Assembly: GCA_963842885.1 (NCBI GenBank)
Contig: CAWJIE010000003.1
Coordinates: 160,001 to 224,000, forward strand
DNA: 64,000 nt
Source of the DNA: an uncultured Nitrososphaerota archaeon
Lineage (GTDB): Archaea > Thermoproteota > Nitrososphaeria > Conexivisphaerales > DTJL01
Direction: 5' to 3'
Made by a program: the position numbers and the translations under genes. Of the stretch, positions 13,254 through 31,526 are shown one piece after another. The notes beneath the pieces are model-generated. The model was not told the origin of the DNA, ran no database searches, and saw only the letters and a list, made by a program, of their open reading frames with translations. Position 1 is the first letter of the stretch. Each line of letters begins with the position of its first letter.

Positions 13254-13385
13254 TGACGGGATGCCAGAGGCTCTGGAAGAAATGACCAAGATTGAAATCC
13301 ATTCCAAGGAAGTCATGCTCAGGAACAAGGACAGCGGTTCTAGGCTTATCTGTGATTTGGAACCTGCTGTCTATCCCTCGCGATA

Positions 13386-13814: not shown

Positions 13815-14035
13815 CTAACAAAGGCCCCATTTCGAACGGCCCTTAAGACGGGACGGCGCCCTCGGGGACCGTGAAGGTTTACCTCGACGTCGAGACGTAC
13901 GGCTTTACGGTGGAAGACCAGCTCTAAACGGAGGCATCACTTGCTGCTCGAAAAGAAATGAATATCATCTCGCCCAAGCAACCGGCTGACGGAACACGTT
14001 TAAGACCTACGCCGTCGTGTCCGTAGGTAACAGTA

Positions 14036-14311
14036 ATGTCAACCCCTAACACCGTATTCATCGGAAAGAAACCGGTCATGAACTACGTGCTGGCGTGTCT
14101 TACCCTCTTCCAGAACGGATCCAACGACGTGCACATCAAGGCCAGAGGGAGGTCCATCAGCACGGCTGTCGACACGGCCGAGATAGTGAGGAAGCGCTTT
14201 GCCACCGAAGCCAAGCTCAAGGAGATCAAGATCGACACCGAACAGCTGAAGGACACGGAAACCGGCGCGATGAGCAACGTCAGCAGCATCGATATAACAC
14301 TGGCGATGTAG
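14036..14311 (+). CDS. albA: DNA/RNA-binding protein Alba
   Basis: [30 protein letters not shown]. Confidence 0.97.
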
Positions 14312-14459: not shown

Positions 14460-14479
14460 CGTGGGCTTGGACCTGCGAA
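14460..14479 (+). repeat. Border repeat copy A (CGTRGGCTTGGACCTGCGAA)
   Basis: 16-bp core identical in copies A-D. Confidence 0.9.
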
Positions 14480-14557
14480 GAAGTGCCACATTCCGAATAG
14501 GTGATGACATTCTAACGCTTAAACAGGACGATTACACACAAGAGATGAGGGGAAAAG

Positions 14558-15574
14558 CTGACAGGGAGTCAAGATGACGCGGTTTGGAAGGACATCGAGA
14601 AGTCTGGTGTCGAGCTGGAACTGAGGGTCGCCTCGATGATACGGAAGAACGACTACTGGGGTATCCGCGTTAACCCGTCCTACATCGACCCGGACCAAGG
14701 CAAATCCCGAGCGCTGGACCTGAGCGCCCTTTGGACTCATGCTTACGAAGACGGCGTGGTCCCGTATTCCTTGACTGTCGATTTCAAGTTACTCATCGAA
14801 TGCAAGAAGCTCCCTGGCAACGCTTGGACATTCTTCGTTCCCGGCGAACCGCTTGGAGCGGCTGTGTATAACGTTGCGTCTAGCATTACATTTGGGAATA
14901 GATCCGGAATCGAGTTCGAGCCTTTGCAATCGGCTTTCCGAAGAGCCATCATACCGGAGGCAACAACCGAGCTATACCGGGAGACCGTGCTCGATAAGAA
15001 TCGTTCAAACAAGAGAGATGACAACATATACGAAGCGTCTCTGACCCTCGCCAAGGCCCACAGCTTCTTTGTGGAGGCGAGAACCAAGGAATGTGACGAG
15101 TACAGCGGCAGTTATGTTGCGGACGCGCTAGACGAAAGAGAAGTCACACTCGACGAGTTTCGCTCAGGGAAGGCCGAACTTTTCGACTACGCCTATGTGT
15201 TCGTACCTCTCATAGTGTTCGAAGGTTCCCTCTACATAGCAGACGTCGGTAGCAAAAAACTTACCAAGGCAAACCTGGTGAGACTGAGCGTCGGCAACCA
15301 ATTCAAGAATGCATGGGCGCCAATGCCGATCGACATATGCACGCCCCAATACCTCCCTACCTACATTGCGGCGGTCGAGAACGCTATCAAGATGTTCAGT
15401 GACGACATCCATTCCACAGAATACAGCCGTACCGGTGGTCCACATCTTGAAGAGTATGACCGTACTAAGTCTTGGTTCCAGAACCATTACCTGGACTTCG
15501 CGGAACTCATCCGCTATCAACTTCCAGCCGAGGAGAAAGGAAGGGCCGAGGAAGGCCTTGACAACCTCCGGTAA
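14558..15574 (+). CDS. PD-(D/E)XK-like putative endonuclease (probable CTG start)
   Basis: KSGVELELRV...YIDPDQGKSRALD...LLIECKK; frame open upstream of ATG 14636. Confidence 0.65.
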   Translation: MTGSQDDAVWKDIEKSGVELELRVASMIRKNDYWGIRVNPSYIDPDQGKSRALDLSALWTHAYEDGVVPYSLTVDFKLLIECKKLPGNAWTFFVPGEPLGAAVYNVASSITFGNRSGIEFEPLQSAFRRAIIPEATTELYRETVLDKNRSNKRDDNIYEASLTLAKAHSFFVEARTKECDEYSGSYVADALDEREVTLDEFRSGKAELFDYAYVFVPLIVFEGSLYIADVGSKKLTKANLVRLSVGNQFKNAWAPMPIDICTPQYLPTYIAAVENAIKMFSDDIHSTEYSRTGGPHLEEYDRTKSWFQNHYLDFAELIRYQLPAEEKGRAEEGLDNLR

Positions 15575-15715
15575 TGAACGGTTCAAGGATGCTACATGAT
15601 CATGCGGTCGTTGCTGGAAAGGGTCACATGTCCTCAAACCGTTCTGGATGGCCGATGCCTTGGAGGTTTTACCGTACGACAGGCTTAAGGGCTTCGTCGC
15701 CAGACTCAACAATGG

Positions 15716-15991
15716 ATGAAGACTTCCGTGAAGCGGGCTATCGTAGCGGTTGCGGTTGTCTGCGTCCTTGCCGCTCTGTTCTTGCCTCTGATACCTGACG
15801 CTGTCATAGAGCCCTGCACTTCCTTATGCGTACCCTCCACTGAAAGGGCCTATGTTTCACTGACATACTTCTTGTTTGGCAAGGGTGGCGTTGTGGTCGG
15901 CACTTCATACGTAGTCTGGTACCCCTACCCTTGGTACATTCACTGGGGCCCGACCTTGCCAGGAACATGCATCCCCACCCTATCTTCTTAG
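15716..15991 (+). CDS. Small membrane/secreted protein
   Basis: Basic plus hydrophobic N-terminus; CxxxC; SLTY motif similar to SLSY in the next gene. Confidence 0.6.
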   Translation: MKTSVKRAIVAVAVVCVLAALFLPLIPDAVIEPCTSLCVPSTERAYVSLTYFLFGKGGVVVGTSYVVWYPYPWYIHWGPTLPGTCIPTLSS

Positions 15992-16043
15992 ACATCTGTC
16001 GCTGCTGGAAAAGAAATCAATAACATTAGCCGCAGAACTTGGA

Positions 16044-16063
16044 CGTAGGCTTGGACCTGCGAA
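16044..16063 (+). repeat. Border repeat copy B
   Basis: CGTAGGCTTGGACCTGCGAA preceded by CTTGGA. Confidence 0.9.
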
Positions 16064-16147
16064 GAATGGGCTACTGCCGCATGACGGCTGGGAGATTTGC
16101 TGCTGGACAGAAGCGAGCTGTTATATCGGGCTCACGCCTAAGCCGAG

Positions 16148-16861
16148 TTGGGTAATGAGATGTCGAGCTCAGAGACATCTACGATCGACACGGGAAAGGT
16201 GAGGAAGAGAAGGTCAAGGGTGCCGCTGGTAGGCGCAGCCGCTGTGCTGATTGTACTGGTAGTCTTTGTATTCGCTCCCGTCGTCGCATATTCGCGCACG
16301 GTCGAAGTGCTTGACCGGTCCACCTTCGCCGGGGTCGGCATACAGGGCTCCTCCCCCAACTTCACGAGCGCGCAGGAGACTGCTTACGGGTCACTATCCT
16401 ATAGCCTCCTCGGCTTCGGGGCGGCGCCATCGTTCAGGACATCCTATTCCTTCGGCTACTTCGACCAGGGAACCGGCATGAACGCGACCCTGACTGTCAT
16501 CTACCGAGACCTCCCCACCCCCGACCTTGCCAGCAGCTCCGGGTCTCCCATATTCCAGGTCGAGAGCATCCAGCTGACTGAGAACGATTCTGCCTTTGGA
16601 GGCGTGACGCTGACGATGACCATCAAGAACCTCTCCTCGGAACCTCTTAGCCTATACGCCCAGGTGGACGTTACGAGCTCCCCACTGTTCACTGGCGCGA
16701 CGCTCTCCCCTTCCGCGACGGCGACGTACAGCTTCACCGTCTGGCCGCCATCCCAGCCCCAAGTCGGACAGCATTGCCAAGTCGTCATCCTAGCTTTCTC
16801 TGGGCTGTACACGAGGTACTGGGCTCAAGTGACGGTGGCGGCACAGGAGACCCCGCCCTAG
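16148..16861 (+). CDS. Membrane-anchored extracellular protein
   Basis: Basic patch plus TM helix, then S/T-rich beta domain. Confidence 0.75.
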   Translation: MGNEMSSSETSTIDTGKVRKRRSRVPLVGAAAVLIVLVVFVFAPVVAYSRTVEVLDRSTFAGVGIQGSSPNFTSAQETAYGSLSYSLLGFGAAPSFRTSYSFGYFDQGTGMNATLTVIYRDLPTPDLASSSGSPIFQVESIQLTENDSAFGGVTLTMTIKNLSSEPLSLYAQVDVTSSPLFTGATLSPSATATYSFTVWPPSQPQVGQHCQVVILAFSGLYTRYWAQVTVAAQETPP

Positions 16862-16931
16862 ACATATCGAATCTTGTGGCGTCCGGCCCTTTGGGCATCC
16901 ATCCTCTCCCCTATTCAGGGCTACGCATGGG

Positions 16932-19429
16932 CTATCCTGCCGCTGACTTGCGCTGGCGCTGCCTCAGCATGAAGTATCCTCCTATTGCCAGCGCGGCTGC
17001 AGCCGCAACGATGGAGGCCACGGCTCCGAAGTCCGTCGCGTAGCGGGCGGTCTCTATATAGGGCTTGATTACGGCCAGGTTCAGGACTGGCGACGTGCTG
17101 TTCACCGTCCCCGTCCAACCTGCGAACCTCTCGGTCCCAAGGAACCCAGCCAGCTCAGGGGCGCTGTAGGAGAAGGTGCCAGAGGGCTGCGAGGCTTTGT
17201 CCGGCCACCCAGCCATGGAAGCCACCGAAGGGCGTCGTCAGGTTGAGGTAGAACTCGGGGGTGTAGGTGTATGAAAGGTAGTACGGCCTGTCGACTACGA
17301 GCTGGCCTTCCTCAATCTTCGGCATGGCGTCGCTGGGCACGATGGGCCCTGCGAGCGTCCCGTTCACGAACACGGCTCGAAAAGCCTCCCGGTTTCGCCG
17401 ACGATGCGTTGAGCCCTCCGCCCACGGTGCCGTAGAGGAAGCTGTAGGTGCCCATTGCTTCTCCAATCCCGTTGATGGCAACGATAGTCGTCGATCCCTT
17501 TGTGTAGTTGAACATGAACGACACGTCGACGTTGGAGAGCGTCAGCCTGGAGTCATTCATTCCGGGCTGGCTCCAGGACCCGACGGCCAGGGGCACCGTG
17601 GCCCCCTCGTCGAACCAGGCCCCTTCGACCTTGGAGTTGGTAGGAAAGAAGAAGAACTCGCCCGTGACCTGGGGGGGTTGCTCCAGCTGCACCGGAATAG
17701 GGGAGAAGAGCGAGCTCCCGCTGACGTAAACGAAATACTGGGTTCTGAACTCCGGGGTGACGGAATGGCTTTCGCCGATGGCCGGGAACGTAATCGTGTT
17801 GTTCGTGGAGCCGCCAGCCCAACCGAGGAAGATGGTCCTCACCAAGCCGGTCGTGTAATTCGCAGGAAGGGATATGATTGCATCCGAGCCCGAATCGAAC
17901 CAGAGGTCTCCCGTCTGCGAGCTGGAGTTGAAGGGGCCATCGTAGCCCTCGAAGATGACGCTGTACTGCTTAACTCCGTCGAGGGTCAGCGTCACCGGCC
18001 CCTCCAAGTCAATGGAGAAGACCCACCCCTCTCGGCCGGTTGGCGTGAAGGTCCCGTTGGCGGAGAAGCCAGTCAGGGACATCCGGCTGTATGAGTCATT
18101 GCTCCAGACGGCTGGAAGGGTAATGTTCTCCGGACCGCTGGTGTACCATGCGTCCTGAACAAGGCCGGCGGGGTCCGACCTGAAGCTGACGAGGCTCTGG
18201 TTCGCCCACGTCGCGACTTCGGTGATGTTGTGCGTCAAGGAGATCATGAAAGACTGGTTTGAGCCAACATACCCGTCCGGCGAGTCACTCCGCCATGCGA
18301 TGAGCGCAACCCTCGTCCCGGTTCCGGTTGGGATGGCCGTTGGGATTACGCCAACGGTCGCTAGGTCTCCATAATCGTAGAGGCCGGCCCCAACGACAGT
18401 CCCCAGTTCGCTGGAGATTGTGAGGGATATCTTCGTCACTGTCACCTCCAACACGTTGCTGGTCAGGACCTCAGTGGCGTCCTGCGCCTCAACCTCCATC
18501 TGGTGAACGGAAGCCGTTCCGAGCGTCAGGTTGAACTCTGGGCTCGCAGTGGTAGACGAAAGCACTCCGTCGACGTACCAACCGTAAGTGACCTCTCCAA
18601 CGGTTCCGACGGCGTCGGCCGAAAGCGAAATCGGCTCTTTCGTGTAGGATTGGGACTTGTCGCTGGAAAGGGTCATAGTCGGCGAGATGTTCCTGATTAT
18701 CACCGACGAGTCATTTACCGAAACGCTGGGCTCGGATGGCACGCTCGCCGACCGGTAGGCCGTCCAGCTGGATTCGACGGTCCCATTGGAGACGAAATAG
18801 CTCTCTTTGCAGAACAGGTTGAAGGTGGGAACGCCACCGGTGGCGTTGTAGACCTCCTCGAAGACGGTGTAGTCCTCGTGAGTCTCGCCGGTGTACATGT
18901 CGTAGAATGCGGAAGAGATCGAGAAGGAGTCCCCTCCCGTGTTGGCCGTCTTGCTGACGATGACGGAGCCGTTCTCCGTCGTCACCGTGAACGTGACTAC
19001 GCCCTTGGAGATCTCCATCCTGAACCAGTAATAGCCGGGCTGGAGCCCGTTCCAAACGAACGAGTCGTAGATGGTGCTCCCGAGCGAGACGTGAGTCGTG
19101 GAGGTCGTCGCCGCCCATGAGCCGTACTGGGCTATGACCCCCACCTGGTCGTAGCTGGAGTTGGAGTCGTAGACGGACACGAGGAAGGGATAGTAGGTAT
19201 CGGCCACGCTGGGAGCCCCTTGCGGGACGTAGAACTCGGCGTCTATTTCTTGAGCCGTGGCCTGTTGCGTAGTGACTGCACCGAGGAACCACGGAGCCTC
19301 AGGAGTGGACGACTGAACTGTAGATACCCAGGCATGTCCGACAGAGGCTGGGAAGTGGGTTAGGAAAAGGGTCGAACCTGCCATGAGCACGAAAAGCGCA
19401 ATGGCCGTTGCCAGCACCCACTTCTGCAC
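16932..19429 (-). CDS. Large cell-surface protein (signal peptide, PKD/Ig-like repeats, C-terminal TM anchor), two frameshifts
   Basis: Three overlapping ORFs join into one ~830-aa protein; many N-x-S/T sequons; C-terminal TM followed by basic tail. Confidence 0.75.
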
Positions 19430-19465
19430 AATCGAGAGAGCCGCGAATTACTATTTTAATGATGC

Positions 19466-19517
19466 CTTGGGCGTAGGCTTGGACCTGCGAATGGGCCTTA
19501 TTTCACAGGTACGTTCA
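19466..19517 (+). repeat. Border repeat copy C, extended 52-bp hairpin form
   Basis: 49/52 identical to the reverse complement of 29144-29195; arms ACCTGCGAA/TTCACAGGT. Confidence 0.9.
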
Positions 19518-19770
19518 AAATACCTTTGCGGCTCAACAGGTATCCCGTCACCAAGATTACCCCACCGAGAATCATGGCGTAGGGCCCTGGGCCTGTCTGC
19601 AATACTGGACTCCCACAAGAAACCTGCAGACCCGCGTAACCTGGCCAGCTGCACAGCTGAGCAGCCACCTTCGAGGGGATGGAGTAGATTCCGATCGTCC
19701 AGAGCGAACCTCCCACCAGACCCAGAGAGCCTGCTACCCACATGCATTTCCATTTGAAGACTGCAGCCAC
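19498..19770 (-). CDS. Small membrane protein ending inside repeat C
   Basis: Two hydrophobic segments; ends NVPVK*. Confidence 0.5.
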   Translation of the reverse strand: MAAVFKWKCMWVAGSLGLVGGSLWTIGIYSIPSKVAAQLCSWPGYAGLQVSCGSPVLQTGPGPYAMILGGVILVTGYLLSRKGILNVPVK

Positions 19771-20004
19771 TCCAGCAACGAAGCTCTGGAAGCAAAGGAC
19801 AGCCAGATAAAAGAGCAGTCGAAAAGATACGAGGGGCGCCTTTCCGCCAAGGATATCGCGCTTGCGGACACAACGAGGGGCTACATCGAAGGACTAATCG
19901 AGAGGGACACGAGAATCAAGGCCCTTCAGGGTGAAAAGGAACAACTCATCGGGCATCTCAAGGATCTGACGAAAGTCAAGGACGATCTCAAAGCCAAGCT
20001 GAAG

Positions 20005-20664
20005 ATGAAGCGCGACCAGCTCATGAAGGAGCCTGAGACTAAGAAGGAGATCGACGACGAAGTCGCCAGGCTAAAGAAGGAATGGGAAGAAAAGGAGAAG
20101 CCCAAGGAGGTCGACCAGGCGGCACTTGATAAGCTGACGGGTGTTCTCGTGGAGCTCAGAGGCCCATCCGAGACGGCACCTACGGTCCCTGCCGGCGACC
20201 TGAAACAGATGGTCAAGCAGATGATAGAAGGAGAGGTGAACCGTCGGATGGACGAGAAGTTCGAAGCCAGAGTGGAGACTGAGAAGAACAAGAGAGTGAA
20301 CGAAATCATCGAGGAGGTAAAGCAGAAGGAATGGGAGAAGTGGTACAATGAGAAGGTGGTACCCCTGGCGAACCAGCTTGACCAGGAGTTCAGGACGAAC
20401 GTGCTCTCCCGTCTGATGGTGCCCTGGCCTCTTACCTGTCTGGCTGGTCATCAAAACACCCACACGTTTTCGGCTGATGAATGGGATGAGCTCGTCAGGA
20501 CCGGGCGCACCAAATTCGCATGCGGTCAATCTGGATGCCTGCAAAGTTTCGTTGGCCCTTTGACCGGAATAGAGGTCAGGTCATCGCGGCTGATACAAAT
20601 CTTGTTTAGTTCGGCAGAATCTCATCCTCCTCAGAGGGACCAAAACTCGGTGGCAATCTTCTAG
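20005..20664 (+). CDS. Coiled-coil protein with C-terminal C-H-C-C putative zinc module (5'-truncated?)
   Basis: E/K-rich heptads; CLAGH...CGQSGC; coding-like frame continues upstream. Confidence 0.6.
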   Translation: MKRDQLMKEPETKKEIDDEVARLKKEWEEKEKPKEVDQAALDKLTGVLVELRGPSETAPTVPAGDLKQMVKQMIEGEVNRRMDEKFEARVETEKNKRVNEIIEEVKQKEWEKWYNEKVVPLANQLDQEFRTNVLSRLMVPWPLTCLAGHQNTHTFSADEWDELVRTGRTKFACGQSGCLQSFVGPLTGIEVRSSRLIQILFSSAESHPPQRDQNSVAIF

Positions 20665-20835
20665 ATCATCAGGATTCTTCATCCATCAGTCCTTCGATTC
20701 CCTACCCTCAGGGCGGCAATACCGATAGTCCTCCTCATGGTTTGCACTCGGAGGAATCCTAGGGCAGGGCCAGACACCGGTCGCGTTCTTGATTACTCGT
20801 GCTGGCGGGCGAAGGCGACGTCGACTGGACTTGGG

Positions 20836-21816: not shown

Positions 21817-21872
21817 GGATTCGTTCTCGGCGCGGACTGCTAATTAGCTTTGCCCCAGGTGGCTGGAGACGG

Positions 21873-22247
21873 CTAGTCGGCAGGCCCTCGCTTCAGGATA
21901 AGCCACTGGCCCTTTCCTCCGGCCATTAGGACCAGCGCGTACTCCCCCTCAAGTTTCGCGCCATGAAGGGTGAAGCGGATCAGCGTAGGGGTCCTTTCGT
22001 TAAGGGTGTACTCGCCTTTGTCCCAGATCTCGACCTTTCCGGCGCCATAGTGCCCCTCGGGGATGGTGCCTTCGAAGGACCCATAGTCCAGGCTGTGGTC
22101 GTCGACCTGCATGGCGAGGTGCTTGATCCCGGGGGCGTCCGGGACCCCCTTTGGGACGGCCCACGACTTGAGCACGCCGTCCATTTCGAGCCTGAAGTCG
22201 AAGTGATGGTGCGAAGCCCAATGTTCGTGCACGACGAATCCAGGCAT
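21873..22247 (-). CDS. Stand-alone LigD 3'-phosphoesterase domain protein
   Basis: FVVHEH...HFDFRLE...SWAVPKG...DHSLDY...YGAG..IWDKG. Confidence 0.92.
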   Translation of the reverse strand: MPGFVVHEHWASHHHFDFRLEMDGVLKSWAVPKGVPDAPGIKHLAMQVDDHSLDYGSFEGTIPEGHYGAGKVEIWDKGEYTLNERTPTLIRFTLHGAKLEGEYALVLMAGGKGQWLILKRGPAD

Positions 22248-22412
22248 CTCATGACGCGGCGGAGCCCTTGGTTATATCAATCTGTGCCTTGGAGGCCTTG
22301 ACATGGGAGCCGACCCCATCCCAGTGATAATCCCTTGGAGGGAGAGCTCAGAATCTGGGCCCACGCACGGCTATGCCATGACATCAGCTTGTGAGCAGGA
22401 ATCCTGGCGAAC

Positions 22413-22586
22413 CTAGAGGCCCTTGAACCCGTCCACGGCGCGCTTCTTCAAGTCGGCGAGCTGGCCCTCGGCATCCGCGCTGAACTCCTTCGCCTTGGAT
22501 TCTATCTTCTCGCGGGCCTCGGCGAAGGCCTTCATCTCCTTCGCCTTCCTGCGCTCCTCTGCCATCGCCCTTGCTTCCGAGCTCAA
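22413..22586 (-). CDS. 57-aa helical protein coupled to atpD (possible subunit H/G-like)
   Basis: TTG overlaps the atpD stop; MSSEARAMAEERRKAKEMKAFAEAREKIESKAKEF... Confidence 0.5.
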   Translation of the reverse strand: MSSEARAMAEERRKAKEMKAFAEAREKIESKAKEFSADAEGQLADLKKRAVDGFKGL

Positions 22587-23219
22587 GCCGCCTGCCTCCG
22601 CCTCTCCAGCACCCGCTTGACGCTCTTAAGCCTTACAAACTCCTCCCTGTCGCGCTCCTCGAGGGTCGACGCGATGAACCTGATCTGGGCCTCGTACTGC
22701 GGGATTATGATGAATTCGAGAGCGTTGATGGTGCGCTGGGTCTTCTCGATTTCGCTGACCAGCCTGAAGATCACGTTCTCGATCTCGGCCGCCTTCAGTA
22801 TGCTGGGGAGAAGCGAAGTCAGGTAGGAGTAGGCCTCGTCCAGCGAATATGAGGTATCGCCGAAGCCATAGGGGCGGAGGACCTCCTTGAAGTTCAGCGT
22901 CAGTGACGGGACGTCGACGTCGACTATCCTCTTGACGTTGACCAATGACGTTCGCGGCGGGGGGCGCCGACTTCGCGGTGGCCTCCAGGCGCATGGCGCC
23001 CATTTCAACGTAGGCCTCGTAGAGGAAGTCGTATCCCTTGAGTATGGAGGCGTTGAGGCTCCTGTTGGCCTTGGACGCCTCCTCCACGTACTCGTTGAGC
23101 TTCTTGAGAAGCACCTCCCGCTTGTCGTCCAAGATGTCGTGAATCTTCTTGGTCATGACCAGCGAGCGCCGGAGCCTGATGAGCTCCAGTTTCGTGGGCT
23201 GGATCTTCTGGCTGGACAT
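22583..23219 (-). CDS. atpD: A/V-type ATP synthase subunit D (frameshift near 22945)
   Basis: PTKLEL...LDDKREVL; EIEKTQRTINALE...LEERDREEF in a second frame. Confidence 0.92.
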
Positions 23220-23225
23220 CTCCCT

Positions 23226-24632
23226 CTACTGCTTCTCCCTGTAGTACTTCGCCAGGTTCTCCGTCTTGATCTTGGTGAGCTCGCGTTCCGGCAGGATGGA
23301 GAGCACTTCGTTCCATGCGATGGCCATGCTCTCGTCCAAGGTCCTGGATTCGTCGTAACTCTGCATGAGGAACTTGTTCTCGAAGGAGTCGGCGAAGTCG
23401 AGGTACCTCAGGTCCACGGGTGCCAGCCCGGCCTTGCCTACGATGCCCACGAGGGCGCGCAGCTCCTGCGCCCTGGAGTATGAATCGTACATCTGGTTGC
23501 TCACCTCGGCGTGGTCCGGCCTCGTCTTCCCTTCGCCTATGCCGTCCTTCATGAGCCTGCTCAGGCTGGAGAGGACCTGGACCGGCGGGTAGATGCCCTT
23601 CCTGAAGAGCTCCCTGTCGAGGACCACCTGGCCTTCGGTGATGTAGCCGGTCAGGTCGGGTATGGGGTGGGTGATGTCGTCGCTTGGCATGCTAAGTATG
23701 GGCAGCTGAGTGATGCTCCCGGTCTTGCCCTTGATCCTGCCAGCCCGCTCGTAGATGGTGGAGAAGTCGGTGTAGAGGTACCCGGGGTATCCCTTCCTTC
23801 CTGGGACCTCCTCCCTTGCGGCGCTGATCTCTCTGAGGGCTTCGGCGTAGTTGGTCATGTCGGTCAGTATGACGAGGACGTGAAGGTTGCCAGTGAAGGC
23901 GAGGTATTCGGCCGCCGTCAGGGCCACCTTGGGGGTGATGATCCTTTCGATGGCGGGGTCGCTGGCCAGGTTGAGGAACAGGACGCTTCTCTTCATGGCC
24001 CCCGTCTCCTCCAGGGCCTTCCTGAAGAACGAGGCCTCGTCGTTCTGCACGCCGACGGCGGCGAAGACGACGGCGAAGTCCTGACCCTTGCCCTTGACCG
24101 AAGCTTGGCGTGCTATCTGGGCCGCGAGGAGGTTGTGGGGCATCCCTGCGCCCGAAAAGATGGGGAGCTTTTGGCCCCTGACAAGTGTTAGCATCGCGTC
24201 GATGACCGAGACGCCCGTCTGGATGAAGTCGATGGGGTAGTCCCTCATGTACGGGTTCATGGGCGAGCCGTTGACATCGCGGAACTCCTCCCCCAGCGGG
24301 GGCGGGAGCCCGTCCAAAGGCTGCCCGAGGCCGTCGAAGACCCTGCCAAGGAGCTCCATGGAGACGGGCATCTCCATGGGCTTGCCGAGGAACTTGACCT
24401 GAGTGCCACTGGTGGATATGCCCGAGGTCCCGGAGAAGACCTGGATGACGGCCCTGCCGCCGCCCACTTCCAGGACCCTACCAAGCCTCTTCGAGCCTGG
24501 CCCCAGTTCCACTTCCACCAGCTCGTCGTAAGAGACCTGGCCGACCCCTTCGACTATCAGGAGCGGGCCCCTCAATTCCGCCACGTCGGAGTACTCGACT
24601 CCGCCGCTTCTCTTAGGCTGCAATCTGGGCAA
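23226..24632 (-). CDS. atpB: A/V-type ATP synthase subunit B
   Basis: [40 protein letters not shown]. Confidence 0.97.
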
Positions 24633-26397
24633 CTCCTTGAGGCAAGAGGGCTTTGAAAGCCGCGTCCATCTCCTTGGTGAGGTCGTCTATCCTGAAGATC
24701 TCGTCGTCCTTGATTTCGAAACGGGCACGCATGATCTTGGATATGACGGGCAGGGCGCGGATCGACTGGAGCGGGACCCCCGCCTTCAGAGACTCGCCGG
24801 CCTCCTTGTAGAAGCCGACGATGAGCTTCAGCAGCGCCACCTGCCTCTTGGGGTTGGTGTAGCTGTCTACGGGGTCGTAGGCCGTCTGCTGGAGGAAGCC
24901 TATCTTGATTATCCTGGCGACGTCAAGGATGAGCTTCTCCTCGTCGGGAAGGACCTCGGGGCCTAGGAGGCGGACGATCTCCTTCAGCGTGTCTTCCCGC
25001 TGCAGGATCTGATATGCCTCCAGGCGCAGGCTGTACCAATCCTTGTCAACGTTCGCGCTCCACCATGGGGCCACCTTGTCCAGGAAGCCGGAGTAACTCG
25101 TCATCCAGTTGATGGCCGGATAGTGCCTGGAGTAGGCAAGCTTCGTGTCCAGCCCCCAGAAGGTCCTGATGAACCTCATGGTGTGCGTGGTCACGGGCTC
25201 CGTGAAATCTCCCCCGCTGGGCGAGACGGCCCCGACCAGGCTGATGGAGCCCGACCTGGCGGGCGTGCCATAGGTGTTCACACGGCCCGCCCGCTCGTAG
25301 AACTCGGCCAGCCTTGAAGCCAGGTACGAAGGATATCCTTCCTCCGCAGGCATCTCCTCCAGCCTGCCGCTTATCTCCCTCAGAGCCTCCGCCCACCTGC
25401 TGGTGGAATCCGCCAGCATGACCACGTCGTAGCCCATGTCCCTGTAGTACTCCGCGAGGGTGGCGCCGGTGTAGATGCTCGCCTCTCGGGCGGCCACGGG
25501 CATGTTGCTGGTGTTGGCGACCAGGACTGTCCTCTGCATCAGGGGCTTCCCTGAGTAGGGATCGATGAGCTGGGGGAACTCCTTGAGCACTTCGGTCATC
25601 TCGTTGCCCCTCTCTCCGCAGCCGACGTAGACCACCACCTTGGTGTCGGCCCAGGAGGCTATCTGGTGGCTCATGACCGTCTTGCCCGTCCCGAAGCCTC
25701 CGGGGATGGCGGCTGCGCCCCCCTTGGCCAGAGGGAAGAAGGTGTCGATGACCCTCTGACCGGTTATGAGCGGAATCTCGGGCTCGAGGCGCTGCTTGTA
25801 AGGCCTCGGCCGTCGCACGGGCCAGTAATGATACATCTTCAGCGGGGTCCTGGCACCGTTGTCGATTGTGACGATCTCATGTTCGATATCGTAGTCGCCT
25901 TCGGGCTCGGCGCTCTTTACGACGCCGGCCTTGACATCAGGGGGGACCATCACACGGTGCTCCACAGTGGAGGTTTCGTTGACGGTCCCGAGGATGGTGC
26001 CTGGCTCGACCTCGTCGCCAGCCTTCACCTTGGGCAGGACGTGCCACTTGACGTTCTTGGGGAGGGAGAAGGCGTTGACGCCTCTCTTGATGTACGCGCC
26101 GGAGGCTGCTGCCAGCTCAGGGAGCGGCCTCTGAAGGCCATCGTAGATCTGGCTCATTATGCCCGGGCCCAGCGTGACGGAGAGGGGCATGCCCGTCCCT
26201 ATTACGGGCTCTCCAGGATGAAGGCCGCTCGTCGATTCGTAGACCTGGACGAACGCGACATCCCCCGTGACCTTGATGACTTCGCCCACCAGCTTGTCTT
26301 CGCCGACGCTGACCGTCTCGGCCATCTTGACCTCGGACATGCCGTCGGCCTTAACCGCGGGGCCGCTGATCCATACTATCTTGCCTTTGGCCACCAA
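24613..26397 (-). CDS. atpA: A/V-type ATP synthase subunit A
   Basis: [27 protein letters not shown]; no intein. Confidence 0.97.
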
Positions 26398-26399
26398 AT

Positions 26400-27026
26400 C
26401 TACCTACGCTCCTTGAAGAACCGTTCATAAACCCTTTTCCGTATGCTGAGCTTCATCCTTTCAAGCCTCGCCTCAAACGTGCTGTTAAACTCTATACTTC
26501 CGTCCTTGCTGACTATGATGAAGCCGCCGGCGCTGTCGATGTTCTTCTTTGCGATGCTAAGGTCGAAGCCATGGAACTCCTTGGCGACATCTTTGAGGGC
26601 CGCCGACAGGGAGGACCTGTCTCCGTCAGGACAAGAGAGTGTGTATACGCCGGGATCCAGCTCTTGCAGAGACTCCCGGAGAAGCTTCACAAGGGCCCTC
26701 TCATAGCGAGCGTCGCGTGGCGCCGAGCGCACTGCGGCCAAGGCGTCGATCACGATGCCTTCGAAGAAGCTCTCGAACGCTGATAGCTGAGCGTTCCTGG
26801 CCTGGAGCTCGGCGGAGCCCAGGATCTTCCTCTTGACATTTTCAGCCTGCTTTCTTCCTTCGAGCATAGACTCCTTGTACTTCTCTGAAGCCCTCTGCTC
26901 GTAGTCTTCGACTAGCTTCAGGGAGGAGGCCAAGGCCTCGTCGAGGAGAGCCTTGAGCGAAGCCGATTCTTCGTTCAGGACCTTTCCGACGGTCGCTTCT
27001 ACCGCATTGCTCGACAATTTACACAC
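26400..27026 (-). CDS. atpE: A/V-type ATP synthase subunit E
   Basis: Helical N-terminus; [22 protein letters not shown]; operon position. Confidence 0.88.
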
Positions 27027-27322
27027 TACACCCCCAGCATGGCTCTAAGAACTTTGCTGTATTCGGTCTCCTCGGCCTTGGCGCCCGGGGTCAGGATTTC
27101 GTATATGAGCGGGACGGCTCGCTTCTTCCTATAATATGCGAGCTTCAACCTGATGGCGGCCGAAAGGTCAGAACCGAGGAGGACGAGCCCGATGCCTTCA
27201 GTCTTGAAAAGACGGTCGACAGCGGCGAGCATCTCTGACGCGGTATCCACTTCGATCCCATCGACGCCCACGAGGCGGAAGGCGGTGACGAACGGCCGCT
27301 TCCCTACGGCGACGACCTTCAT
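27026..27322 (-). CDS. atpF: A/V-type ATP synthase subunit F
   Basis: MKVVAVG...FRLVGV; 98 aa. Confidence 0.9.
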   Translation of the reverse strand: MKVVAVGKRPFVTAFRLVGVDGIEVDTASEMLAAVDRLFKTEGIGLVLLGSDLSAAIRLKLAYYRKKRAVPLIYEILTPGAKAEETEYSKVLRAMLGV

Positions 27323-27478
27323 TGGCTCAAAATGCCAACCACATGTGATTTAAGCATTTGCGCTCACGTTCCACGTGAAGACGGAGTTGATCGCCTTCTC
27401 GGCTGACCCCATCGAATCGGGCTCGCCCGGGTCCGTCATTCTGAAATAGGCCGCTCGTCCACTGGAGTATGGGGAAGA

Positions 27479-27739
27479 ATGAGATTCACTAGGCTGGTTT
27501 GGGTCGCCTCCGCGTTGGTCGGCTTGGCTGCCACCTACGCCCTTTCCTACGTCTCGACCCCCATGCTCTTCCCGGTCGTCGGCGTTCAGCAGTTCGGCGT
27601 CCCTGCGCCCGTCTACGCAGCACCGGTGTACCCGAACGCCAGCCTTAGAATGGTGCCCGCGGGGATCATAGTGGACTTCCTCTTCTGGTTCGTCCTGAGC
27701 GTCGCCATCCTGGCCGTCGCCGCCGGTTGGAGAAGGTAG
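27479..27739 (+). CDS. Small membrane protein
   Basis: Two TM helices. Confidence 0.65.
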   Translation: MRFTRLVWVASALVGLAATYALSYVSTPMLFPVVGVQQFGVPAPVYAAPVYPNASLRMVPAGIIVDFLFWFVLSVAILAVAAGWRR

Positions 27740-27765
27740 CCAAGCCTAGCCCGAACAACGTCTGC

Positions 27766-28371
27766 CTATCGCTCGGACCGGCCGTATGCCTCGTAGAAGA
27801 CCTGTTGCGTTGTGGGCTTCCTCCCCCTCTTGAGCGAGGGGGACCTCTTGTCAGGAAGAGGATGGCCTATCGAAATGGTCCCGACAGGGTGTTGGTCCTC
27901 CGGGATCCCTAGTATCCTCCTGATCGCGACGGGGTCGGGGGCTCCGGCGAAGGTGGCAGCGAGACCACGGTCAACGGCGGCCAGAAGGACGATCATGCAG
28001 CCGGCCCCGATGTCGAAGTACCAGTACGGGACTGGCCACTCGATCTCCTTCCCGTCAGGACCAAGTTTGTCGGGCTCGCGGTAACGGTCGTGGTAGACCT
28101 TCTCGCTGACGCAGGGGACGACCAACACAGGCGAGGCCGAGATGAACGAATCGAACCCCGCATCGACGTAGCCCGACTCGCCTTGAGCTTCCGCCAACTT
28201 CCTCTTCGTGGCTTCGTCTCTGACCACGACGTAGCAGGAACCTTGGCTGAAGCCCGCGCTGGGCGCGTGAAGTGCTAGCCCCAAGATGGCGTCGATGTCA
28301 TCGTCGGGGACCTCCTCGTCCGAGAAGTGCCTGACCATCCTCCTCTTTAAGACGACCGACTGGAATTCCAT
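27766..28371 (-). CDS. Nitroreductase family protein
   Basis: KRRMVRHF, APSAGFSQ, LAAVDRGL. Confidence 0.9.
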   Translation of the reverse strand: MEFQSVVLKRRMVRHFSDEEVPDDDIDAILGLALHAPSAGFSQGSCYVVVRDEATKRKLAEAQGESGYVDAGFDSFISASPVLVVPCVSEKVYHDRYREPDKLGPDGKEIEWPVPYWYFDIGAGCMIVLLAAVDRGLAATFAGAPDPVAIRRILGIPEDQHPVGTISIGHPLPDKRSPSLKRGRKPTTQQVFYEAYGRSER

Positions 28372-28603
28372 GGAGTTCTCGGCTAGGGGGAAGCTCGGCA
28401 GCAGATAAGAATTGGCTGCGTTCCAGCGGTTGGAGGGATCACTAGGCATCCGTTTGGGTCCTGTTCGCCATGGACCTGCCCTGGAGTCGACCCAACGAAG
28501 CCCGAAGGAGTCCCCACCCATCGAGATAGGAGACTCCCTCGGTCTTGCCGCTCCTGGAGGGTCAGGGCCGTCCCGAGCCGGCTATTGGACAAGGCTCTAA
28601 TAT

Positions 28604-28982
28604 GTGAAGCCCGTAGCTCGCTTTGTGGTAGTCAACCTATTCACGTCGAACTACGTCCCGGGATGCAAGGTGGACAAGGTCGTTGGGCTCGTCTACGGGA
28701 TAACGGTGAGGTCGAGAGGCATCGGCGGGAACATCATGGCCGGCCTCAGGACGCTTGGCGGAGGAGAGATACACGAGTACACCGAGCTGGCGCACCAGGC
28801 AAGGCAGCAGGCACTGGACAGGCTGTCCCAGCAGGCTGAGACCCTCGGCGCCAACGCCGTGATCAGCGTGATGTTCGACTCTACCGAGATCGGTCACGAC
28901 CATGGACGAGATAATCGCCTTCGGTACAGCTGTCGTCGTTTCGCCCGTGGCAGACGGCCAGCAGTTCGTCAGGCTGAGCTAG
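28604..28982 (+). CDS. YbjQ/UPF0145 family protein (frameshift near 28895)
   Basis: GGEIHEYTEL, GANAVI, then MDEIIAFGTAV in the next frame. Confidence 0.88.
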
Positions 28983-29143
28983 GCCCGAAGGCTTCGACGA
29001 CCGGCACCACTCTCGTAGGCAGGCCTATCCGTGATGCTTCGCGAAGGAGCTCCTGGGTTGGAAGATAGGGCTGCAGTGGTGTCACTTCAGGGATCCACAA
29101 TGCAGCCTGTGTGTGCAGGCTGACGTCTGGGAAAAGCTGCAAG

Positions 29144-29195
29144 TGAACGTACCTGTGAAATAAGGCCCTTTCGCAGGTCCAAGCCCACGTCCAAG
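29144..29195 (-). repeat. Border repeat copy D, extended hairpin form
   Basis: Reverse complement of copy C (49/52). Confidence 0.9.
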
Positions 29196-29292
29196 AACGG
29201 CGGTTGAAGACATCGTTATTCTCTTCCAGCACTCATGAAAGACGCCCTATGGGCGGGCTTCCTAAAGCCTGCCTTCCGCCAGCGACGCTGTG

Positions 29293-30336
29293 TCAGGCGT
29301 CCATGGATTTGAGCTTTGTCTTGTACCTCTCCCTGTTCGTGGACTCGTACTCCTCCCTTCTCGTGAGCATGAACCAGACGATCTTCAGCATCTTGTTGGC
29401 CACGGCTACTACGGCCTTCTGGTCGCCTCTCCTCTCCTTCACCCGCTCGTAGAAGGACCTCAGCCTCGGGTCGTGCATCGATGCAGACCTCGCCGCCTCC
29501 ACCATGATCCATCGGAGCATCTTGGAGCCCTGCTTCGTTATGGCTCCGTGATACTCCACGGAGCCCGATTGGTGGAGAGAGGGCGCCAGCCCCGCCCAGG
29601 AAACGAGCTTCTTGTAGTTGGGGAACCTCTTGATGTCCCCTATCTCGGACCTTATGAGGAGGGCCGAGAAGACGTCCACCCCCGTCAGGCTCAGGAGCAG
29701 CCTCACGTCCTCGTCCTGTGACGCCCTCTCCGTGATCCTGTCGTCCACCCTGGAGATCTGCCCGTCCAGGCTCTCCAGGTGGGCCAGGTGGTTGTCCAGC
29801 ATGAGCCTGTCCATGGGAGGGAGCTCCAGCGACCTCAGCCACCCCACTCCTCCCTTCCCGAACAGGTCGGAGAAGTCATGCTTCAGGCCGTTCCTGTCGA
29901 CCATCGCGTGAACCCTGTTCTTCACCATGGTGCGCACCCTCACTATGGAGGCCCTGTGCCTGATGAGCTCCCTCATCTCCCTGACATCCTTGGGAGGGAC
30001 GTAGCTCTCGGGTATGAGATCGGCCCTCAGCAGATGCGCCAGTATCCTTGCGTCCACTTTGTCGCTCTTTATCCTCGCCCACGCTATGGCCTTGGTCTTC
30101 GAAGGGGAGGCCAACACGGTCGCGACGTGCATGGAATCGAGCCTCTCGTATATGCTTAGCCAGTAAGCCCCCGTCGACTCCATGACCACCCTGTCGTCCA
30201 TGGTGAGCGTCGCCGCTAGGGAGGATATCCCCTCATGGTCGTTGTCGAAGCCGAACTCGTCCACTACGGCCCCGTGCTCGTCCATCATGGAGACCCTGCA
30301 TCTCGTCTTGCCCACGTCTATTCCCACGTACTTCAT
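29293..30336 (-). CDS. IS110 family DEDD recombinase/transposase, 347 aa
   Basis: YVGIDVG, VMES, KSDKVDA, GLAP..HQSG, A.VAVANK; SD GGAGGTG. Confidence 0.96.
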   Translation of the reverse strand: MKYVGIDVGKTRCRVSMMDEHGAVVDEFGFDNDHEGISSLAATLTMDDRVVMESTGAYWLSIYERLDSMHVATVLASPSKTKAIAWARIKSDKVDARILAHLLRADLIPESYVPPKDVREMRELIRHRASIVRVRTMVKNRVHAMVDRNGLKHDFSDLFGKGGVGWLRSLELPPMDRLMLDNHLAHLESLDGQISRVDDRITERASQDEDVRLLLSLTGVDVFSALLIRSEIGDIKRFPNYKKLVSWAGLAPSLHQSGSVEYHGAITKQGSKMLRWIMVEAARSASMHDPRLRSFYERVKERRGDQKAVVAVANKMLKIVWFMLTRREEYESTNRERYKTKLKSMDA

Positions 30337-30344
30337 CTTTTCAC

Positions 30345-30490
30345 CTCCTTCGTACGCAGCTGGCATCGGGCTGCATTCACTCATGCGGGCGCGAAGCCCA
30401 CTTCCTTAGCAGCTCAGGATTCGCCCAGTCAGCAACACGGTCGCCAGGACCATGCTGGAAATAGGGCTTGCCAGCCCATACGGTATCAGG
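30345..30490 (-). ncRNA. Putative IS110 bridge/seek RNA
   Basis: Several hairpins; segments matching target halves (30453-30460, 30430-30437) and donor halves (30378-30385, 30347-30350). Confidence 0.65.
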
Positions 30491-30586
30491 GGGCGTCTTT
30501 CATAAGGTCAGCAATAGATGCCCGGATGCCTGTTCGGGATGGTAGAAATAAGAGGAGGTCTACAGGTTCTACAGACTGGGTTCAGG

Positions 30587-31213
30587 ATGGTGAAGAACAG
30601 GACGCTCGTTATTGGCTTATGTGTGCTCGTAGCGGCGTCTGCCTTGGCTTTTGGACTGCTAAGTCAGGAGTATCATCTAGTTGAGAATGCCTCGACACCG
30701 ATGGTCGTTCATTCTCCCGTACACGACGGTCTTGAGCTCACGGCTACGATTGAGCGAGAGGGACAGAACGTCAGCGTCATCGCCGAGGTTAACAATACGC
30801 TATCAACATACCTGCAAGTGAATTCAACTTCCATCGATAATCCTGCCTACGGACCCTGCCAGCAGGGTTTTGCCACGGGGGTAAGAGTCTACATGGGACA
30901 TTATTCGCTCAGCAATCTATCACAAGCTAAGGAACTCTTGCTCTATGACCCATCGTCGCAATACCGCTGCCCGGCATTCTTCACATTTCAGTATACCTTT
31001 TCACCAAATAGCGCAATGGCAACGGTACAAGCAACTCTAGGTGGCTATCAACAGAATGGATCTCGGCTTGTCAGTGAAACGTCGGTTGTCTCGGGTTATT
31101 GGGTCGGCTCTGGGCAGAGTTACATATTCCAGAGATTCCCAGCTGGAGAATATTCGGTTCTCGTCTTCGACGCGTGGGGAGACGAAGCAGTCGGATACTT
31201 CCAAGTCGCCTAG
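30587..31213 (+). CDS. Secreted/membrane-anchored hypothetical protein
   Basis: Signal-like N-terminus; two Cys; lower GC. Confidence 0.7.
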   Translation: MVKNRTLVIGLCVLVAASALAFGLLSQEYHLVENASTPMVVHSPVHDGLELTATIEREGQNVSVIAEVNNTLSTYLQVNSTSIDNPAYGPCQQGFATGVRVYMGHYSLSNLSQAKELLLYDPSSQYRCPAFFTFQYTFSPNSAMATVQATLGGYQQNGSRLVSETSVVSGYWVGSGQSYIFQRFPAGEYSVLVFDAWGDEAVGYFQVA

Positions 31214-31324
31214 TCTTTGCACCGCGAACTTGACCAAGCGCACCTACGCAACGGACTGAATTGAGGACATCGTAATTCCTTCCGGCATCAACAGATATCC
31301 AAATGCATCTTCCAGTGGCTCTCA

Positions 31325-31344
31325 TTCACAGGTCCGAGCCCATG
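31325..31344 (-). repeat. Border repeat copy E (degenerate)
   Basis: TTCACAGGTCCGAGCCCATG is 17/20 identical to the copy D core, same orientation. Confidence 0.6.
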
Positions 31345-31526
31345 TAATAGGGCCACTGCCTGAAACCGACTCCAGCCGAACCATAACAAGACTGGGTTTG
31401 TCTAAGGAGCCACTCCAATGCCTCCCCAAAAGCGACTAGTACTGTTTGCCTAAGCTACAGGTTGGGCAAACTTAAAAACCACCCACCTGAATGGCTAGGT
31501 GCATCAAGGATTTCGGTGAAACTCGT

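Follow-up and report, generated by a model that had tools for sequence, protein, structure and literature searches.

We propose, with moderate confidence, that, in a single Conexivisphaerales genus (non-ammonia-oxidising Thaumarchaeota), a short repeat lying between accessory genes is the att-like core of a gene-cassette system. Each cassette would carry one site; when this site, on an incoming or excised unit, recombines with one in the chromosome, the unit would be inserted or removed. The outcome would be co-oriented site-unit-site arrays at a few intergenic hot spots, with an orientation set by the asymmetric core. We infer that the joining is carried out by a dedicated site-specific recombinase, for which the tyrosine type is a first guess and which would be provided in trans or by unbinned mobile DNA, and that unit transfer passes through a circular form. 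The preliminary description of this DNA had likewise supposed a recombination site that strings accessory units into arrays, and clustering in the genome, co-orientation and unit turnover support that supposition.

The window, by which we mean the whole 64-kb stretch of DNA that was analysed, holds four perfect copies of the 20-mer CGTRGGCTTGGACCTGCGAA and a fifth copy with three mismatches, compared with no match in each of 100 dinucleotide shuffles. The five copies described earlier were thus recovered by direct scan at the same positions, and all five are intergenic, as had been claimed, according to gene calls made independently in this analysis. The sites, units and neighbouring modules are as follows.

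14460 to 14479, plus strand: site A, 0 mismatches; 16-nt core at 14464 to 14479; first site past the Alba gene
14480 to 16043: unit A-B, two ORFs, with an empty class-3 module at its end
14636 to 15574: ORF of 312 aa in unit A-B, no family assigned
15716 to 15991: ORF of 91 aa in unit A-B, N-terminal anchor
15987 to 16024, plus strand: unoccupied class-3 module of the CTTGGATATCTGTCGCTG/CTGGAAAAGAAATCAATATC type, the IS110 target; c3L at 15987, c3R at 16005
16044 to 16063, plus strand: site B, 0 mismatches
16064 to 19471: unit B-C, two ORFs
16148 to 16861, plus strand: ORF of 237 aa in unit B-C, membrane anchor
17312 to 19429, minus strand: ORF of 705 aa in unit B-C, N-terminal anchor
19472 to 19491, plus strand: site C, 0 mismatches; 25 extra bases (GGGCCTTATTTCACAGGTACGTTCA) in common with site D alone
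19492 to 20819: variable unit with an ORF at 20005 to 20664; region without conservation in relatives
29170 to 29189, minus strand: site D, 0 mismatches; 100 nt past the YbjQ-family gene
29230 to 30508, minus strand: IS110-family insertion sequence of 1279 bp, ends ACCTTATGAAAGACGCC...GGCGTCTTTCATGAGTG, inside a class-3 module
29293 to 30384, minus strand: IS110 transposase CDS (NF033542, 271.7 bits, cut-off 140; PF01548 and PF02371 match)
30518 to 31213, plus strand: ORF of 231 aa, N-terminal anchor, in the most recurrent cargo family
31225 to 31324, minus strand: empty class-3 module, then a core remnant (by eye); c3L at 31303
31325 to 31344, minus strand: site E, 3 mismatches; 23.4 bits on the site matrix
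31345 to 31480, minus strand: class-2 module, a 28-nt near-palindrome (11-6-11) plus a conserved 3' part

Sites A, D and E each adjoin a core gene, in agreement with the earlier placement of copies at core/accessory edges. The Alba gene ends 150 nt before site A, and the ribosomal protein S2 gene starts about 150 nt from site E. Between C and D, the core block from 21820 to 28981 (A-type ATPase operon, nitroreductase and YbjQ) is kept in four other genomes of the genus, while its flanks show no conservation there. The hot spot past YbjQ has different content in G001 and G002, together with a site-like match (3 mismatches in G001, 2 in G002) in the same orientation as here. The whole site spans about 40 nt, GGRCGTR-GGCTTGGACCTGCGAA-(0-4 nt)-TGGGCTGAC, of which the 20-mer is the conserved double-stranded core. 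The CTTGGRC-N5-CTTGGAC direct repeat reported earlier does occur but is not general: CTTGGRC was exact at 9 of 164 sites and within one mismatch at 28, and the part conserved upstream of the core across the 164 sites is GGRCGTR rather than CTTGGRC.

Cargo consists mostly of cell-envelope proteins, transporters and small accessory genes. The membrane, surface or secreted character ascribed to it in the window agrees with N-terminal hydrophobic anchors in four cargo proteins. The family of the 231-aa ORF has 22 non-redundant members in site-bearing loci, and unit B-C has a paralogue of 75% identity in a separate array (G000 C2:23942-26713). The name nuclease for the 312-aa protein was unsupported by Pfam, NCBIfam, PADLOC and PDB sequences, and a protein atlas returned nothing beyond one lead of 0.83, which is at chance level. 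Of defence genes, also suggested as cargo, none was found in the units of the window. A peat contig of 5776 nt covers 14490 to 16010 with 60 differing letters, and about 4 kb of it beyond this part is absent from the window. By eye, a possible decayed site at about 20797 to 20819 may close the variable unit. Peat contigs X1 and X2 join 19496 to 20820 (side 30), which is a weak hint only.

The enzyme of the IS110 element had been raised as a candidate for moving the cassettes. The element is a passenger aimed at a neighbouring module, not the cassette enzyme: it inserts into the class-3 module, and no match to its enzyme was found in the site-rich G001 and G003. Its assignment to the family rests on a DEDD transposase, a specific target, a precise empty site and no target-type TIRs. 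The empty site, in which 29229 is joined to 30509 (side 255) without 29230 to 30508, was found in peat contigs, and two further copies of the element occupy the same class-3 target, making three in all. Stretches that look like a bridge RNA were noted in it by eye.

At genome scale, the family comprises 66 to 67 copies in 2.03 Mb. A scan allowing up to two mismatches found 66, versus 1 in a reversed control, and a site matrix found 67, with none in the reversed genome and none in the rest of the genome outside the islands. The family is limited to one genus of Conexivisphaerales; the genomes are MAGs that are 59-95% complete. The core is perfect or near-perfect in four species that are about 80% identical in the ATPase block. 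When sites were sought by their flanks only, core mismatches were bimodal, with 61 sites at three or fewer (42 of them perfect), 2 at five to six and the remainder attributable to chance, and within 8 nt on the upstream side of the core almost no information content is left. The site shows no more than a weak 6-6-6 dyad (CGTRGG/CCTGCG, 4-5 of 6; by eye). No viral contig carried the site plus flanks.

Several familiar kinds of element were considered and rejected. A MITE does not fit copies that are direct rather than inverted around gene-bearing units of 167-11151 nt. A tRNA-derived att was set aside, since no site overlaps any of the 31 tRNA genes and 62 of 66 copies are intergenic. The same applies to an attC hairpin: the 20-mer has no RYYYAAC/GTTRRRY cores (by eye), folding of 164 sites (-25 to +35) as DNA gave no hairpin (mean z -0.01), and for the core with a 60-nt tail the mean z was -0.2, -0.69, 0.11 or 0.18, depending on the tail class.

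The genome-wide motif scan proposed in the preliminary description revealed both island clustering and co-orientation. Adjacent pairs within 5 kb number 42, versus 9.9 expected and a maximum of 19 in 1000 random placements, and neighbouring pairs in the genome are co-oriented in 44 cases and opposed in 3. Among 200 metagenome sites at 80 loci there were 120 co-oriented pairs and 0 opposed. Each genome has about a dozen separate site clusters. For the 131 units between sites, median length is 1017 nt and median GC content 54.5%, versus 58.7% for random segments of equal size. Site orientation switches within 5-10 kb and is therefore independent of replication direction.

Presence or absence of units, or a changed context, was seen in relatives and in natural populations. 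Where homologous units occur in other genomes or arrays, their homology ends at the 16-base core and their neighbours are unrelated. For example, G002 and G000 share a 2.1-kb ABC-transporter unit at 88% identity, with homology that stops at the core on both sides and unrelated flanks, and three adjacent G000 units have relatives of 91-92% identity on two different G002 contigs among other neighbours. For units of at least 94% identity, homology ended within 1 nt of the core in 11 of 13 junctions by a rough measure; two junctions lay 24-30 nt off the core. A metagenome contig whose other units are those of G002 has one unit in common with G000, at 95% identity. Common units of G000 and G002 are 88-92% identical, and they are more alike between species than the conserved ATPase block (81%), the sole core stretch compared. 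Whatever lies 5' of the core stays with the unit upstream of it, and whatever lies 3' stays with the unit downstream. The near-identical contigs L150 and L120 differ by a single 334-nt unit, present in L150 and absent from L120, with flanks that are 99.9% and 98.8% identical and an exchange point 14-19 nt 3' of the core. Another recent event is seen in contig L151, which is 98% identical to G000 and has a 1-kb piece at a different position. A check for circular forms found no circular junctions for units.

A search for a linked or co-distributed recombinase, also suggested earlier, found none. No tyrosine recombinase tested reached the IntI or XerA cut-off, and the six from G000 and G003 scored at best 32.8 bits with the IntI profile TIGR02249, against a cut-off of 265, in genomes 59-95% complete. 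Between genomes, tyrosine recombinases share only 21-42% identity, though the core is identical. G004, a single-site congener that is 90% complete, has no PF00589 match, and the four site-rich genomes have 1-5. In G003, two site-bounded units of 10-12 kb contain a tyrosine integrase (one also DUF3987); the two integrases are 21% identical to each other, and one of them lies 640 nt from a 15-site array. Apart from these two, the units (129 of 131) have no integrase of their own, and only one was found in 378 kb of site-bearing metagenome contigs. A serine recombinase was matched in G000 alone, and within the genus the Y1 transposase had matches in G000 and G002 alone.

These results leave room for a more specific reading, which we put forward tentatively: cassette capture unrelated to integrons, with a 16-20-nt asymmetric duplex core that lacks a usable dyad and a recombinase that may belong to an unrecognised family or be aided by a guide RNA. 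Such a system would insert, excise and exchange cassettes of one gene each, encoding envelope proteins, transporters and restriction systems, at numerous hot spots in the chromosome and also between species.

The main rival, which we regard as rather unlikely, is that the repeats serve as BIME-like portable homology, so that general or microhomology recombination of the host shuffles units with no dedicated enzyme. The core would then be one of several repeat modules, with a primary role other than recombination or none. The islands do contain four module families (core 66, class 1 30, class 2 19, class 3 about 30), arranged as mosaics with a common orientation. One breakpoint of the L151 rearrangement lies in a 36-nt class-1 repeat and not in the core. 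Exchange points also vary (at the core, at +14-19 nt and at +24-30 nt), a co-distributed recombinase was not found, and deletion of one unit between direct repeats is possible without a special enzyme. However, the sites bounding the 334-nt unit are identical over at most 7 consecutive nt at the exchange point (by eye) and are therefore a poor substrate for homologous recombination. A core that stays near-perfect over four species, with sharp edges and few decayed intermediates, points to sequence recognition rather than neutral homology. Portable homology also leaves unexplained how a new gene acquires a site, and the rest of the genome has no sites.

It is improbable that the sites are abutting ends of non-autonomous transposons, of the single-strand IS200/IS605 type or rolling-circle, with each right end meeting the next left end. 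The absence of terminal inverted repeats, the strict orientation, the tandem arrays and the division of 5' and 3' parts between upstream and downstream units would suit such ends, and the genome has one Y1 transposase and six TnpB genes. IS200/IS605 ends are hairpins, however, whereas the site and its tails are unfolded (mean z about 0 to -0.7). The Y1 gene does not lie near a site, no match to it was found in G001 or G003, no Y2 transposase was found by a search that was also blank in all 14 control genomes, and the orientation flips within 5-10 kb are unrelated to replication direction. Least credible, and very unlikely in our view, is a regulatory site, that is, a common promoter, operator or terminator of an envelope-gene regulon (a "mobile promoter"), which would account for intergenic, conserved copies beside genes of similar classes. 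All four gene arrangements occur around intergenic copies (20 same/opposite, 17 opposite/opposite, 12 opposite/same and 11 same/same), and the next gene, 22-784 nt away, is co-oriented with the site in 25 of 64 cases. The copies thus lack the fixed distance or orientation relative to genes by which the preliminary description would have recognised a transcription factor site. No A/T-rich box is present in the core, sites keep one orientation across arrays where gene orientation is mixed, and homology of shared units stops at the site.

The att-like cassette reading can be compared with known systems. Integrons, archaeal ones included, have co-oriented short cassettes, mostly of one gene, with one site each, as described by Ghaly et al. 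(2022, PMC9668308). The present arrays are similar in their co-oriented short units with one site each, in content that differs between strains, in the many arrays that have no integrase next to them (CALIN-like) and in a cargo with numerous small proteins of unknown function. They differ in having a conserved duplex site of 20-40 nt instead of a folded attC with RYYYAAC/GTTRRRY ends, mixed gene orientation in units (the 25 of 64 above), and about a dozen site clusters per genome instead of one platform with attI and Pc; no IntI was found among the recombinases tested. Thaumarchaeal iMGEs with a tyrosine integrase have a median att length of 17 bp, and the tycheposon islands of Prochlorococcus are tandem tyrosine-integrase elements, according to Krupovic et al. 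(2019, PMC6563490) and bioRxiv 10.1101/2020.12.28.424599, respectively. The likeness lies in short direct-repeat att cores around units, in reuse of one site to build arrays and in islands that gather att remnants and cargo. In contrast, nearly all units here (129 of 131) lack an integrase, most measure about 1 kb, the core lies outside tRNA genes and serves many loci, and the integrases near sites are mutually unrelated.

The REP/BIME elements of enterobacteria are palindromic mosaic repeats with a linked RAYT (Y1) enzyme and are targeted by insertion sequences. Here, too, several short intergenic modules occur in mosaic order and an IS110-family element specifically targets one of them, but the core is non-palindromic and unfolded, its copies are island-confined and co-oriented, and no co-distributed RAYT-type enzyme was found, the lone Y1 gene being far from sites. 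The pdif modules of Acinetobacter plasmids have 28-bp 11-6-11 dyads in alternating orientation and are moved by the host XerC/XerD. They share with our units the form of discrete accessory-gene modules with short recombination-site borders, varied contexts and no enzyme in the module. The core here is instead asymmetric with all copies direct, an 11-6-11 near-palindrome is found only in the separate class-2 module (by eye), and no XerA scored above cut-off among the recombinases tested.

Flexible islands of uncultured archaea usually lack a described mechanism, and here the junctions are known to the base. The 20-nt sequence could serve as a probe for retrieving cassettes and their enzyme from metagenomes and, if that enzyme is new, the system would be a compact, orientation-specific means of recombination at a short asymmetric site. 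One site joins units of about 1 kb at about a dozen clusters, and near-identical strains differ in their units. Units appear to be gained, lost and swapped in the manner of bacterial integron cassettes, but at a site of another kind and with no enzyme found for it. This offers a testable model of how a peat-soil archaeon may vary its cell-surface and transport genes.

The five copies of the 20-base sequence CGTRGGCTTGGACCTGCGAA that the preliminary description had listed were reproduced in position and strand, and 100 dinucleotide shuffles gave zero matches to it.

Copies of the 20-base site in the window
14460 (+), site A, 0 mismatches
16044 (+), site B, 0 mismatches
19472 (+), site C, 0 mismatches
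29170 (-), site D, 0 mismatches
31325 (-), site E, 3 mismatches

The window has archaeal content (TBP, TFB, Alba, an A-type ATPase operon and ribosomal protein S2), and the sites have an Alba gene before A, a YbjQ-family gene before D and the S2 gene after E. Two convergent arrays flank a core block, with C and D as their innermost sites. This block (21820-28981) is kept at 75-84% identity in all four other genomes of the genus, and the DNA outside it shows no conservation in them. C and D also have 25 extra bases in common (19492-19516 (+) and 29145-29169 (-)) that occur nowhere else in the genome and could be a trace of inversion or of a common original flank.

A genome-wide scan showed the sites to be both clustered and co-oriented. 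In the 2.03-Mb source genome (G000), the 16-base core GGCTTGGACCTGCGAA is present in 66 copies at up to two mismatches, compared with one in the reversed control, and a matrix built from 164 sites found 67 copies, with 0 in the reversed genome. Adjacent sites less than 5 kb apart formed 42 pairs where 9.9 were expected (maximum of 19 in 1000 random placements), and pairs within 15 kb were co-oriented in 44 cases and opposed in 3. Across 80 metagenome loci (378 kb, 200 sites), the adjacent pairs were 120 co-oriented and 0 opposed. The conserved layout is GGRCGTR, then the core, 0-4 nt that are mostly A, and the box TGGGCTGAC. The CTTGGRC direct repeat proposed earlier did not hold as a general feature, since an exact copy lies upstream in just 9 of 164 sites. 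A core-independent search using only the flanks returned a bimodal core, with 61 sites at three or fewer mismatches (42 perfect), two with 5-6 and the remainder at chance level. Read by eye, a weak 6-6-6 dyad with 4-5 of 6 matching can be made out in the 18 bases CGTRGG-CTTGGA-CCTGCG; it is not significant alone and would be in line with a minimal core for a tyrosine recombinase whose overlap is asymmetric.

The site has a narrow distribution among the genomes compared, all of which are MAGs. The four congeners G001 to G004 carry 24, 60, 44 and 1 copies, respectively, of the 16-mer (at most one mismatch); G003 also carries weaker core copies and a variant ending GCTCA. Outside the genus, there is one copy with one mismatch in the genome G015 and none in the 35 further relatives searched. 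Among 185,579 species, each represented by one genome, the 20-mer was found in three MAGs only, titled Conexivisphaerales archaeon or uncultured Nitrososphaerota archaeon.

Between co-oriented sites lie 131 units of 167-11151 nt (median 1017), 75 of them no longer than 1100 nt, with a lower median GC than random segments of equal size (54.5% vs 58.7%). The top recurrent cargo families, reviewed as hidden recombinases, are membrane or surface proteins, ABC ATPases and cNMP-binding proteins, and were rejected as such. Defence cargo had been suggested for the window; it exists in the arrays, as a 3.9-kb site-bounded unit elsewhere in the genome (contig C4:337259-341208, also L026:15259-19208) carries a type II restriction-modification set of a DpnII-like endonuclease, a methyltransferase and a second methyltransferase-like gene, but it is not found in the window, where the 'nuclease' label of a 312-aa protein in unit A-B was unsupported and was dropped. 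On contig C2 (103909-104611; L029:10894-11626), a 700-bp centre carrying two small ORFs has an array running outward on either side; both begin with a class 3 repeat, followed by a core and a GGGTTTCATG...GTTAAATGC tail, and together make an inverted duplication.

Comparison of related units shows that the site is a recombination junction, as the preliminary description had inferred. G002 and G000 share a 2.1-kb unit for an ABC ATPase and permease that aligns end to end at 88% identity between unrelated flanks, and the core is both the start and the end of homology; the GGRCGTR side belongs to the upstream unit, whereas spacer and box belong to the downstream one. Two of three adjacent units on contig C8 of G000 have 91-92% relatives in G002, on different contigs and with other neighbours, and the C2 array contains a 75% paralogue of unit B-C from the window. 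Shared units of the two genomes are 88-92% identical while the ATPase block is only 81%, and one unit common to G000 and a G002-like metagenome contig is 95% identical. In an enlarged set of 94 homologous unit pairs, at least one flank was unrelated in 30 and both were homologous in 55, most of the latter being one DNA seen in a MAG and a metagenome contig. At unit identities of at least 94%, homology extended to within 1 nt of the core at 11 of 13 junctions and stopped 24-30 nt away at 2, by a rough measure that gave 0 and 30 for two near-identical rows.

Presence or absence of single units, an expectation of the cassette proposal, was observed. Contigs L120 and L150 match at 99.9% identity along 4932 nt to one side and at 98.8% along 1627 nt to the other; what separates them is one 334-nt unit with a 71-aa membrane protein and two bounding sites. 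Here the point of exchange is 14-19 nt 3' of the core, past the box. Contig L151 is 98% identical to C2:104.6-107 kb of G000 with a 1-kb piece repositioned, and has one breakpoint at a core and the other in a 36-nt class 1 repeat. In two peat metagenome runs (X1 and X2), which may include the sample of origin and are thus not independent of the assembly, a 5776-nt contig carries unit A-B, and about 4 kb past 16010 is unmatched to the compared 20-kb stretch. Joints between sites (14481>19470, 16063>19466/7, 16072>19469, 16026>19465 and 15996>29165) are no evidence of excision, since their sides of 21-31 letters are the repeat itself. A joint 19496>20820 with a side of 30, along with an uncovered bin at 19804-20467 in X1 to X3, gives only a weak hint that the unit in between is missing there. 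The circular junctions anticipated earlier were not seen: terminal overlap was present in 0 of 80 metagenome loci, contigs being unable to reveal rare forms. Viral carriers were also rejected, as the 21 exact 16-mer matches in IMG/VR, by a rough estimate about a chance number, had the downstream box in none and CGTG upstream in only one.

Other functions for the site were examined. Our own gene calls, which are crude (2209 genes, 81% coding), place 62 of 66 copies between genes. A promoter, operator or leader is excluded because all four kinds of neighbour-gene arrangement are present and only 25 of 64 sites are followed by a co-oriented gene, at distances of 22-784 nt; the sites are thus not at the fixed distance of a transcription factor site. 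The 164 sites show no DNA-folding signal (mean z -0.01), in agreement with the earlier statement that the site is not an integron attC, and an Rfam search of the window returned zero families. None of 31 tRNA genes overlaps a site. Orientation is independent of replication direction because flips occur within 5-10 kb in several places, including from C to D.

The core is followed by one of a set of recurrent tails. These modules share the islands and orientation of the core in mosaic orders, some without a core.

Recurrent modules and IS110 copies in G000
Class 1, 30 copies, about 40 nt
Class 2, 19 copies, 28-nt 11-6-11 near-palindrome plus about 100 nt
Class 3, about 30 copies, target of IS110
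Window 29230-30508 (-), IS110 copy in a 38-nt class 3 module
Contig C7, about 19.0-20.3 kb, IS110 copy in a 38-nt class 3 module
Contig C3, about 1.4-2.7 kb, IS110 copy in a 38-nt class 3 module

The near-palindrome that starts class 2, of the type GTTTGCCCAAC CTGTAG GTTAGGCAAAC, is found at 31444-31471 (-) and 18 other places in the genome; its layout is like that of Xer/dif-type sites, while here there are 19 copies. The IS110 element (NCBIfam 'RNA-guided transposase') had been the candidate integrase in the window. All three copies sit at ...GCTG|CTGG... in class 3 modules, 45-55 nt from the core, and an unoccupied class 3 copy is at 15987-16024. An X1/X2 contig joins 29229 to 30509 (shorter side 255 letters), so the 1279-bp element is absent there base for base. 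Since it is unmatched in the site-rich G001 and G003 (24 and 44 sites), we consider it a passenger and not the cassette enzyme. By eye, its 124-nt left end has look-alikes of the target (GTGTTGCTGACTGG vs CTGTCGCTGCTGG) and of its own right end (CATGAGTGAATG vs CATGAGTG), a pattern that would be expected of a bridge RNA. Core look-alikes in the same end (GTGGGCTT, ATGGGCTGGC), seen by eye with no statistics, were set aside.

The linked recombinase that the cassette proposal called for was sought, and none fits. In G000 the tyrosine recombinases number four; the genome also has a single serine recombinase, a Y1 transposase accompanied by TnpB and another five TnpB genes. All tyrosine recombinases tested scored below the cut-offs for IntI and XerA, and congener relatives of those in G000 are 23-42% identical. 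The serine recombinase (matches in G000 alone) and the Y1 transposase (within the genus, G000 and G002 only) are not co-distributed with the sites. A search for Y2 transposases gave no hit, and none in its 14 control genomes either. In G003, a 9.6-kb site-bounded unit contains an integrase that is 640 nt away from an array of 15 sites, and a 12-kb one contains a second integrase along with a DUF3987 protein; the identity between these two integrases is only 21%. The array-adjacent integrase L015:13175-14362 and L026:1346-2515 remain candidates for the cassette enzyme. G004, with a single site and 90% completeness, has no PF00589 match and the four site-rich genomes have 1-5, in a small sample of related genomes. 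A tyrosine recombinase 41-42% identical to the one on C4 of G000 was seen at four contig ends of G002 (C75, C132, C105 and C90; L036-L039), one copy ending about 760 nt from a site; it is multi-copy and breaks the assembly, given these positions.

Our best guess, held at even confidence, is that a dedicated site-specific enzyme acts at the site, favoured by how sharply an asymmetric 20-mer is conserved across species, its absence elsewhere, the strict site orientation and a single-unit difference at sites without a long identical stretch in common. The main rival, general recombination between portable repeats, is held less likely; in its favour are exchange points that vary in position, the L151 breakpoint in a class 1 repeat and the lack of a fitting enzyme. 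In its working the system resembles the integron but does not pass the tests for attC and IntI (PMC9668308). It is also similar to thaumarchaeal integrated elements in tandem att-site reuse (PMC6563490) and to tycheposon islands (10.1101/2020.12.28.424599); in contrast to both, an integrase is missing here from 129 of 131 units, and the core is no fragment of a tRNA. Full-text searches on archaeal integrons or cassettes, Conexivisphaerales mobile elements and flexible-island recombination returned no account of this site or system.

In every genome of the genus, several diverged copies of each of the TBP, TFB and Alba genes adjoining site A (11403-14311) are present on other contigs. G002 has two Alba copies with a site after each, and homology stops at the core. 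The island cargo may include paralogues of basal transcription and chromatin genes.
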